NCBI RefSeq assembly: GCF_045037415.1
Contig: NZ_CP173438.1
Direction: 5' to 3' (one strand)
Length of the DNA: 64,000 nt
Origin: Escherichia coli
Lineage (GTDB): Bacteria; Pseudomonadota; Gammaproteobacteria; Enterobacterales; Enterobacteriaceae
Shown here: positions 56,619 through 59,072 of the stretch, one piece after another
Numbering within the stretch: position 1 is the stretch's first letter
Layout of the letters: the number at the start of each line of letters is the position of its first letter
The notes under the pieces: generated by a model
The model's database searches: none
Seen by the model: only the letters and a program-made list of their open reading frames with translations
What the model was told of the DNA's origin: nothing
Position numbers and translations under genes: made by a program

Positions 56619-57374
56619 TTGAGTGCGGGACGCCTGAATAAAAAATCTCTGGGTATCGTGATGTTGTTATCGGTTGGACTGCTTTTGGCGGGCTGTTCGG
56701 GTAGCAAATCATCCGATACAGGAACGTATTCCGGCTCCGTTTACACCGTGAAACGGGGGGATACGCTATATCGTATTTCGCGCACCACGGGAACCAGCGT
56801 AAAAGAACTGGCGCGACTGAACGGCATTTCCCCCCCTTACACCATTGAAGTAGGTCAGAAACTAAAACTGGGTGGGGCGAAAAGTAGCAGTAGTACACGT
56901 AAATCAACCGCCAAATCCACGACCAAAACCGCATCGGTTACACCGTCATCAGCGGTACCGAAATCTTCCTGGCCGCCAGTAGGGCAACGTTGTTGGTTAT
57001 GGCCAACGACAGGGAAAGTTATCATGCCGTATTCGACAGCAGATGGCGGCAATAAAGGGATTGATATCTCAGCTCCACGAGGTACACCTATTTACGCCGC
57101 GGGTGCAGGAAAGGTGGTGTATGTGGGCAACCAGCTGCGTGGCTACGGTAATCTCATCATGATTAAACACAGTGAAGATTACATTACGGCTTACGCTCAT
57201 AATGACACGATGCTGGTAAATAATGGGCAAAGCGTGAAGGCTGGGCAAAAAATCGCCACTATGGGGAGCACTGATGCGGCATCTGTTCGCCTGCATTTCC
57301 AGATTCGTTACCGTGCAACGGCAATTGATCCGCTACGTTACTTGCCGCCTCAGGGCAGCAAGCCAAAATGCTGA
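56619..57374 (+). CDS. ygeR: LysM / M23-peptidase-domain lipoprotein (septal murein hydrolase activator)
   Basis: Track ORF 56595..57374; likely TTG start (RBS gaggaaag) giving 251 aa; lipobox LLAGCSG; C-terminal M23 (LytM) domain. Confidence 0.88.
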   Translation: MSAGRLNKKSLGIVMLLSVGLLLAGCSGSKSSDTGTYSGSVYTVKRGDTLYRISRTTGTSVKELARLNGISPPYTIEVGQKLKLGGAKSSSSTRKSTAKSTTKTASVTPSSAVPKSSWPPVGQRCWLWPTTGKVIMPYSTADGGNKGIDISAPRGTPIYAAGAGKVVYVGNQLRGYGNLIMIKHSEDYITAYAHNDTMLVNNGQSVKAGQKIATMGSTDAASVRLHFQIRYRATAIDPLRYLPPQGSKPKC

Positions 57375-57452
57375 TGGCGAATTAATCAGCAGTCAGCAGC
57401 GTGGTACTTGCTAAGGAGAGCGTAAGGTTTATAATGCCTTACGCATCTCGAA

Positions 57453-57526
57453 GCGGGCGTAGTTCAATGGTAGAACGAGAGCTTCCCAAGCTCTATACGA
57501 GGGTTCGATTCCCTTCGCCCGCTCCA
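57453..57526 (+). tRNA. glyU: tRNA-Gly (anticodon CCC)
   Basis: 74-nt sequence gcgggcgtagttcaatggtagaacgagagcttcccaagctctatacgagggttcgattcccttcgcccgctcca; cloverleaf with CCC anticodon in the cttCCCaag loop; 3' CCA encoded. Confidence 0.95.
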
Positions 57527-57842
57527 ATTTATCTTCACATCATCTACCTGCCATTTTTGTTGTATCTGATTTTCTATATTATCTTAATTCAAGCGCTTCA
57601 GACTTTTCGCAATCGCCGTAATACTTCCCCATTTTTTTGTAAATAAAAAGCGTTTACGCAATGCAATCGTCATGTATCTTAAATAGTCTTATTTAAGATG
57701 TTCAGAACTCTTTGTGTGTTTAACTGGCTGATAATTATATAATATTACGAGAGAAGTGATAGAGCGGAATAATAACAAATGAACATTATGAAAACTGGGA
57801 TGGTTCAAAATTGAAGCAATTTTGAACCATCCACAACGGATA

Positions 57843-59072
57843 TTAGCTAAAGAACATTACCGATACGCACAGGATACCCACGATCAGGGTAATCAGATTT
57901 CCGATGGAACGCCAGGGTTTAAGCGCCGGGATGAGATACGTTGACAGCGTAGGCATGATGAAAAGTATCATGGCAATGAGCGGGCCGCTGATCGCGTAAA
58001 TCATCGAAATCGCGTTCGGGTTAATGCAACAAACAATGAAGGTAATCAGCGATACCAACATAATTGATAGTGCGCGGTTAAATGCACGACTTTTCTTTAC
58101 ACCAACCTGCTGTAATGTTGTTTTGACGACCTCTGTGGCACCTTCAATAACGCCAAAGTACGTACCCAGGAATGATTTCGACATCGCAACTACTGCGACA
58201 ATAATCCCGGAAATTGACAACCATGCTGGGGCGTTCGGCAGCATAGAAAGCGCCGATAAAATGGTAACCCCTTCTTCTTTAGCCGCTTCAATATACGAAG
58301 GTGGAATAGAAAGCAGGCAGCTAAAGACAAAGAACAATACACTTATGCAGATGATGAGATAAGCGACTTTCATAATTTTTTTGCATTTATCCATAGCATG
58401 TTCGCCATATTTTTCACGTCTGTCTATGGCAAACGTAGAAATAATGGGCGTATGGCTAAAAGCGAAAACCATCACGGGAATCGATATCCATATCTGGTGA
58501 AGGGTATTCTGATTGAACTCTACCTGGGTTGTTAATAGATCAGGTTGCCAACTACCGACCAGGTAAATAGAAAGAAATAAGAAATAGGCAATCAATGGGA
58601 ATACCAAAAATCCCATTACCCGAATAGTGGCATGGCGTCCCATCAGAAAAATGAGATTCAGGATTAATACAACCCCCAGACTCACTAGCATACGGATGCG
58701 AAGATCAATAACCATATGCTTTGCCAGCTGTTCCGTAAGTGAGTTGGTAATTGCCACTGCATATATCAACACGACGACAAAAAAGGCGATGAAGTACAGC
58801 GTGGTAATCAGATTACCAATCTTCTTGCCATAGTAGTGTGTTACCGCGCCCGTTATCCCTTCACCTGCTGATGTTTTCGATGAGAGGATGAACTGGCATA
58901 AGGCTTTATGTGGCCAATATGTTAAAGGCCAGGCGACCAGAGCAGTAATAAACAGGACCACAGCCCCCGCCGAACCTAACTGAATAGGAAGGAAGAGCGT
59001 GCCTGCACCAACGGCTGTGCCGTAGAGTGCGAAACTCCACAGAGTTTCTTCTTTTGACCAAATATTAGACAT
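57843..59072 (-). CDS. yqeG: Amino-acid (Ser/Thr-type, HAAAP family) transporter YqeG
   Basis: 409-aa polytopic membrane ORF MSNIWSKEETLWSFALYGTAVGAGTLFLPIQLGSAG... Confidence 0.9.
   Translation of the reverse strand: MSNIWSKEETLWSFALYGTAVGAGTLFLPIQLGSAGAVVLFITALVAWPLTYWPHKALCQFILSSKTSAGEGITGAVTHYYGKKIGNLITTLYFIAFFVVVLIYAVAITNSLTEQLAKHMVIDLRIRMLVSLGVVLILNLIFLMGRHATIRVMGFLVFPLIAYFLFLSIYLVGSWQPDLLTTQVEFNQNTLHQIWISIPVMVFAFSHTPIISTFAIDRREKYGEHAMDKCKKIMKVAYLIICISVLFFVFSCLLSIPPSYIEAAKEEGVTILSALSMLPNAPAWLSISGIIVAVVAMSKSFLGTYFGVIEGATEVVKTTLQQVGVKKSRAFNRALSIMLVSLITFIVCCINPNAISMIYAISGPLIAMILFIMPTLSTYLIPALKPWRSIGNLITLIVGILCVSVMFFS

Follow-up and report, generated by a model that had tools for sequence, protein, structure and literature searches.

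The glyU-yqeG spacer of a B2-type strain

The DNA analyzed here, which we refer to as the window, is a stretch of 64,000 nucleotides from Escherichia coli. In it the yqeG gene, which encodes a poorly studied permease, converges with the tRNA gene glyU, and the spacer between the two genes carries a palindrome located next to the yqeG stop codon (Table 1). The region 57380-58100 is 100% identical to the B2-type E. coli strains SK1144, Nissle 1917 and APEC O1:K1:H7, indicating that the window comes from a B2-type lineage free of ETT2. YqeG orthologs sharing 73-99% identity are found in 80 Enterobacteriaceae species representatives; thus, yqeG is a core gene and not island cargo. On the other side of the spacer, a promoter-like sequence (TTGCTA-16 nt-TATAAT, 10/12 matches) occupies 57408-57435, ending 18 nt upstream of glyU, and is probably the promoter of this tRNA gene.

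Table 1. Features of the glyU-yqeG spacer and its flanking genes, with positions in the window.
Feature	Position	Strand	Basis and remarks
glyU, tRNA-Gly(CCC)	57453..57526	+	tRNA detection, Rfam; convergent with yqeG; context, outside the predicted terminator
Segment Z	57535..57612		
Segment X	57613..57668		
Island-free junction	57668..57676	.	Breaks against K-12, O157 and O111; 122-130 bp from the hairpin; context, outside the predicted terminator
Palindrome I2	57676..57699		ATCTTAAATA-gtct-TATTTAAGAT
U-rich tail	57785..57794	-	UUUUCAUAAU, directly 3' of the extended stem; proposed release site; terminator scan, tail score
Extended stem	57795..57836	-	RNA folds; 19 pairs in total, one-base bulge at 57833
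Core hairpin	57798..57832	-	16-bp stem, 3-nt loop; RNA in the yqeG sense: GGAUGGUUCAAAAUUG-CUU-CAAUUUUGAACCAUCC
yqeG, amino acid permease (409 aa)	57843..59072	-	ORF; RefSeq annotation in a 100%-identical genome

A perfect inverted repeat follows the yqeG stop codon

Separated by 10 nt from the yqeG stop codon (57843-57845) and by 270 nt from glyU, the palindrome consists of two arms of 16 nt each, 57798-57813 (GGATGGTTCAAAATTG) and 57817-57832 (CAATTTTGAACCATCC), which are 100% complementary and spaced by 3 nt. Among the perfect inverted repeats of hairpin type in the 64-kb window, it is the longest. By our own arithmetic, a repeat with perfect arms of 16 nt around a short loop would be expected about 1e-4 times per 64 kb, and the palindrome is far beyond chance. 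A search of the window with the half-site returned the two arms themselves and no further copy.

On the minus strand, the 91-nt hairpin region folds with -24.9 kcal/mol, compared with -10.4 +/- 2.7 kcal/mol for shuffled sequences (z = -5.4), and none of the 200 shuffles folded as well. Three additional pairs, namely 57834/57797, 57835/57796 and the U·G pair 57836/57795, extend the stem and bring UUUU (57794-57791, minus strand) directly against it, with UUUUCAU abutting the extended stem on the yqeG-sense strand. The base of the stem is G/C-rich, as 4 of the 6 basal pairs are G-C, while the 16-pair stem contains 6 G-C pairs as a whole and is A/U-rich in its upper part.

An earlier note on this DNA, made from the sequence alone, had described near-perfect arms of 15 nt around a 5-nt loop. 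The palindrome it reported is real, with the corrections that the arms are perfect and 16 nt long and that the loop has 3 nt. The same note had placed the element just after the yqeG stop, with a U-rich flank on the minus strand, and had read it most simply as a terminator for yqeG. Position and flank agree with what we observed, and the terminator reading is backed by the stem and U-tract, by compensatory changes in Escherichia and by the hairpins that other genera have at this place.

The hairpin resembles a Rho-independent terminator

A terminator scan requiring at least 3 G-C pairs in the stem matched the site on the minus strand only, reporting 16 pairs (6 G-C), a 3-nt loop and the tail CAGTTTTCAT, which has 5 T in 8 positions. 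Two terminator-like sites were found by the consensus scan in 57300-58100, where 0.6 were expected. The TransTermHP-style tail score of the window hairpin was -4.35. On the plus strand, the sequence 3' of the hairpin reads ACAACGGAU and has no T-run. The site thus combines a stem-loop on the sense strand, a G/C-rich base, a U-tract, a post-stop position and a conserved structure, all of which are features of Rho-independent terminators. Against this assignment speak a short U-tract (4 U in the window, 5 U in K-12), the A/U-rich upper part of the stem and a stem length beyond that of most E. coli terminators.

We also looked for previous descriptions of the element. Neither yqeG nor yqeH appears in the four text supplementary files of the E. 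coli 3'-end mapping paper (Adams et al. 2021, PMC7815308), and a full-text literature search on yqeG returned no account of a yqeG terminator. Genomic SELEX is reported to show peaks of RNA polymerase holoenzyme between yqeG and yqeH of K-12; these bear on a yqeH promoter and not on the hairpin. When Rfam 15 was searched at a permissive threshold, no family reached its gathering score over the hairpin and only the glyU tRNA was significant; the matches on the hairpin itself were at chance level (mir-373, 16.8 bits vs 69; rli40, 9.7 vs 100).

The stem covaries within Escherichia

We searched 5426 complete E. coli genomes with the 61-nt hairpin region and with the 721-nt span from glyU to yqeG. 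Three 61-nt haplotypes that differ at stem pair 2 together account for 4963 genomes by exact match. The O157 type (2857 genomes) has A-U there, the K-12 type (947 genomes) has G·U, and the B2 type, to which the window belongs (1159 genomes), has G-C. This series is the classical compensatory route through a wobble intermediate. Pair 15 reads A-U in place of U-A in two genomes of the cryptic Escherichia clades, of which one also carries U·G at pair 14. In E. albertii, the apical stem has been replaced and the 13 basal pairs have been retained.

When seven Escherichia sequences were aligned, 94.6% of the cells were paired, versus 21.6-52.3% when the partners were slid. Two pairs had changed on both sides, and one more pair (G·U/U·G) on one side only. 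This sample of seven sequences is small, and the changes are supporting evidence, not proof, that the structure of the hairpin is under selection in Escherichia. We also used the wobble pairs as a test of which strand is folded: two of them speak for the yqeG-sense strand, one apical pair speaks for the antisense strand, and 105 (sense) versus 107 (antisense) of 111 cells are paired, with the E. albertii upper stem misaligned in this count. All Escherichia versions have a U-rich run directly after the stem, with tail scores from -2.6 to -4.35.

Hairpins follow yqeG in other Enterobacteriaceae

The first 70 nt past the stop codon were folded for 81 yqeG loci of the Enterobacteriaceae. At 62 of the 81 loci z was below -2 (median z -3.5), and the hairpin started at a median of 6 nt past the yqeG stop. 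The sequences of these hairpins are unrelated between genera, with G/C-rich stems in Citrobacter, Salmonella, Enterobacter, Kluyvera and Klebsiella. Such a constant position combined with sequence turnover is typical of terminators and contrary to what a sequence-specific protein site would show. At the same time, 4 or more T within the 8 nt after the parsed stem are seen at only 18 of the 81 loci, and the hairpins of Klebsiella and Raoultella have at most 3. Because so few loci carry a U-tract, the conserved role may be general 3'-end formation or protection, and not strictly factor-independent termination.

Two side observations concern this set. Among the Klebsiella and Raoultella loci, L054-L056, L063, L064, L071-L073, L076, L077 and L081 have stable G/C-rich hairpins that lack a clear U-tract (e.g. 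...GCCGCACGUUCUGCC), and these hairpins may not be classical intrinsic terminators. In addition, the YqeG encoded at locus L069 is enterobacterial (81% identity) although its contig bears the label Chryseobacterium sp. 18061, and the assembly is probably contaminated or mislabelled.

ETT2 junctions in the spacer

The contiguous island-free glyU-yqeG arrangement was found with the 721-nt query in only 1220 of the 5426 genomes. On the glyU side, similarity to island-bearing genomes stops at 57668 (57676 by BLAST), and on the yqeG side it begins at 57669-57676, as seen in K-12, O157:H7 and both island edges of O111:H8. In the non-contiguous genomes, the yqeG-side match starts at query positions 290-293, which correspond to 57669-57672 of the window. 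The true island-free junction of a B2-type strain can now be placed at 57668-57676, within the spacer to which the earlier note had correctly assigned it.

The order of segments in this region differs between lineages. Here, Z, X and I2 are the segments listed in Table 1, and Y is the island-side segment that adjoins I2 in island-bearing genomes (about 100 nt traced in K-12). The window, representing the B2 type, reads glyU-Z-X-GTCATGT-I2-hairpin-yqeG, and O111 reads glyU-Z-X-[ETT2]-Y-GTTATGC-I2-hairpin-yqeG. O157, O26 and O104 have the same Z-X beside glyU as O111, and the K-12 type has the O111 arrangement without Z. The island-free Escherichia sp. MOD1-EC7003 (L005, 4399-4516) reads glyU-Z'-Y-I2-hairpin-yqeG; X is absent, the join lies at a shared ATCGC, and the 53 nt of Y nearest I2 are kept. 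In the E. albertii type strain (L084, 953-2297), the region upstream of yqeH directly adjoins the 3' part of ygeQ.

The junctions of ETT2-free or ETT2-depleted Escherichia are thus of at least three kinds, in keeping with deletions of ETT2 that happened repeatedly and independently. The two fully island-free types cannot be converted into one another by a single event. The three junctions also agree with a published account in which ETT2 arrived before E. coli and E. albertii split (PMC4700944), followed by repeated loss. It has been suggested in discussion that B2 never had ETT2 (PMC7058095). The spacer data are compatible both with a virgin B2 site and with a precise deletion.

Some further details of the spacer were noted. 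The segment Z, 78 bp in length, follows glyU in the window and in the O157, O111, O26 and O104 types and is missing in K-12-type genomes, which keep only the 56 bp that follow it. GTCATGT, the 7-nt sequence at the B2 join, is similar to each of the two island edges, CTTTTGT and GTTATGC. Compared by eye as possible diverged direct repeats, X and Y show about 47% similarity in A/T-rich sequence.

A second palindrome, I2, starts at the B2 island-free junction

The best-conserved block of the spacer downstream of yqeG is I2, in every Escherichia locus examined, E. albertii included. It is single-copy and confined to Escherichia. As RNA it folds only weakly (-9.5 kcal/mol), and the changes within it do not compensate one another, which suggests that I2 may be a putative protein-binding site.

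Alternative explanations for the hairpin

Both the striking symmetry of the palindrome and its location, in the spacer that holds the island-free junction, had led the earlier note to suggest a junction or recombination scar, that is, an att-like remnant of ETT2 insertion or loss. This we now consider extremely improbable. The 61-nt hairpin region is present in single copy next to or under yqeG in 5379 of the 5426 genomes, so that, after subtraction of the 1220 island-free ones, at least 4159 island-bearing genomes carry it beside yqeG. Nor does the palindrome abut the insertion point in such genomes, as had been proposed as a check: divergence occurs at 57668-57676, and the hairpin, which starts at 57798, lies 122-130 bp inside the shared backbone. 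It is nearly unchanged there, with 0-3 substitutions relative to the island-bearing K-12, O157:H7 and O111:H8, two of them forming one compensatory pair, and it survives in three lineages whose loss of ETT2 left a different junction in each. By the condition that the note itself had set, an unchanged element distant from the junction in island-bearing genomes, the scar idea is refuted. Judged as an att scar, the hairpin neither adjoins the point of divergence nor distinguishes occupied from empty sites. A copy of a dispersed extragenic repeat, either REP/BIME-like or a miniature mobile element, has just as little to recommend it. The palindrome is intergenic, as such repeats are, yet it occurs at a single locus per genome in 5382 genomes, where REP/BIME members have many copies per genome. 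Its half-site is not repeated in the window, and no match was found in the phage collection or in the true plasmids of the plasmid collection (PLSDB). Three PLSDB entries that did match (NZ_CP141089.1, NZ_CP134663.1 and NZ_OL790696.1) are 4.8-4.9 Mb in size and evidently mislabelled E. coli chromosomes.

The perfect dyad symmetry, together with wobble-pair counts that favour neither RNA strand clearly, would also suit an element acting as DNA, such as a dyad site for a dimeric regulator or a site forming a cruciform. Operator half-sites are usually far shorter than 16-bp arms, though, and the palindrome sits at a gene's 3' end, where the consensus scan found nothing promoter-like nearby. Moreover, what other genera keep at this position is a hairpin of unrelated sequence, so that the structure is conserved and not the sequence, and the G·U form of pair 2, a mismatch at the level of DNA, is a stable haplotype of at least 947 genomes. 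We regard a DNA-level element as quite improbable. The main rival to termination is a hairpin that protects or processes the 3' end: transcription would end downstream, for example by Rho, 3' exonucleases would trim back to the stem, and the yqeG mRNA would be stabilised. The short U-tract in the window, the scarcity of U-tracts among the orthologous hairpins, particularly in Klebsiella and Raoultella, and the absence of yqeG from the supplementary 3'-end text files (PMC7815308) all favour this explanation. Against it stand the U-rich run kept after the stem by every Escherichia version and the agreement of the site with the terminator scan. Protection in place of termination therefore seems unlikely to us, if less so than the other alternatives, and the two roles are mutually compatible.

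A model for the end of the yqeG transcript

With good confidence, we propose that yqeG has a Rho-independent (intrinsic) terminator whose stem-loop is encoded by the palindrome. Its anatomy, its linkage to yqeG and its conservation were observed directly, and we infer from them both termination and its Rho-independence; it is thus a predicted terminator. Our model suggests that RNA polymerase on the minus strand would clear the yqeG stop codon, transcribe the 16-bp stem (19 bp with the extension) 10 nt further on and reach the U-tract UUUU(C)AU at once. The hairpin would then form behind a weak rU:dA hybrid, and the transcript would be released. In island-free strains, this would halt yqeG transcription before the convergent glyU; in island-bearing strains, it would keep yqeG apart from the co-directional regulator gene yqeH.

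Most likely, the hairpin is an ordinary terminator, and as a routine one it is of little consequence in itself. The useful outcome is a negative one, namely that the palindrome is no ETT2 scar. More speculatively, the hairpin might insulate yqeG from yqeH and, separately, I2 might be a protein-binding site tied to the regulation or loss of the island; we hold this to be a long shot. If it were true, the long perfect hairpin would set the read-through into yqeH, the first ETT2 regulator gene, and would be part of the regulatory wiring of ETT2.

Comparison with known systems

Like the att sites and direct-repeat scars of tRNA-linked islands, of which ETT2 at glyU is an example, the hairpin lies in the spacer of an island junction. 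In contrast to them, it sits off that junction and is present at occupied as well as empty sites. With REP/BIME elements it shares the form of an intergenic palindrome downstream of a gene, and it differs from them in being single-copy and in lacking the REP consensus.

A further likeness is to bidirectional intrinsic terminators, since the hairpin is a perfect palindrome that lies, in the island-free strain, between the convergent yqeG and glyU genes. Unlike these, it has no plus-strand U-tract and is located well away from glyU. The missing U-tract, together with the co-directional gene downstream in island-bearing strains, makes the yqeG element look unidirectional.

Compared with the Rho-independent terminators of the Enterobacteriaceae, the yqeG hairpin is unusual in its long stem (16-19 bp), in the A/U-rich upper part of that stem and in a U-tract of 4-5 U, and termination is predicted here from such features. 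In all other respects compared it resembles them: the stem-loop lies a few nucleotides past the stop codon on the sense strand, has a G/C-rich base and is directly followed by a U-run, and compensatory changes preserve its structure while the sequence turns over between genera.
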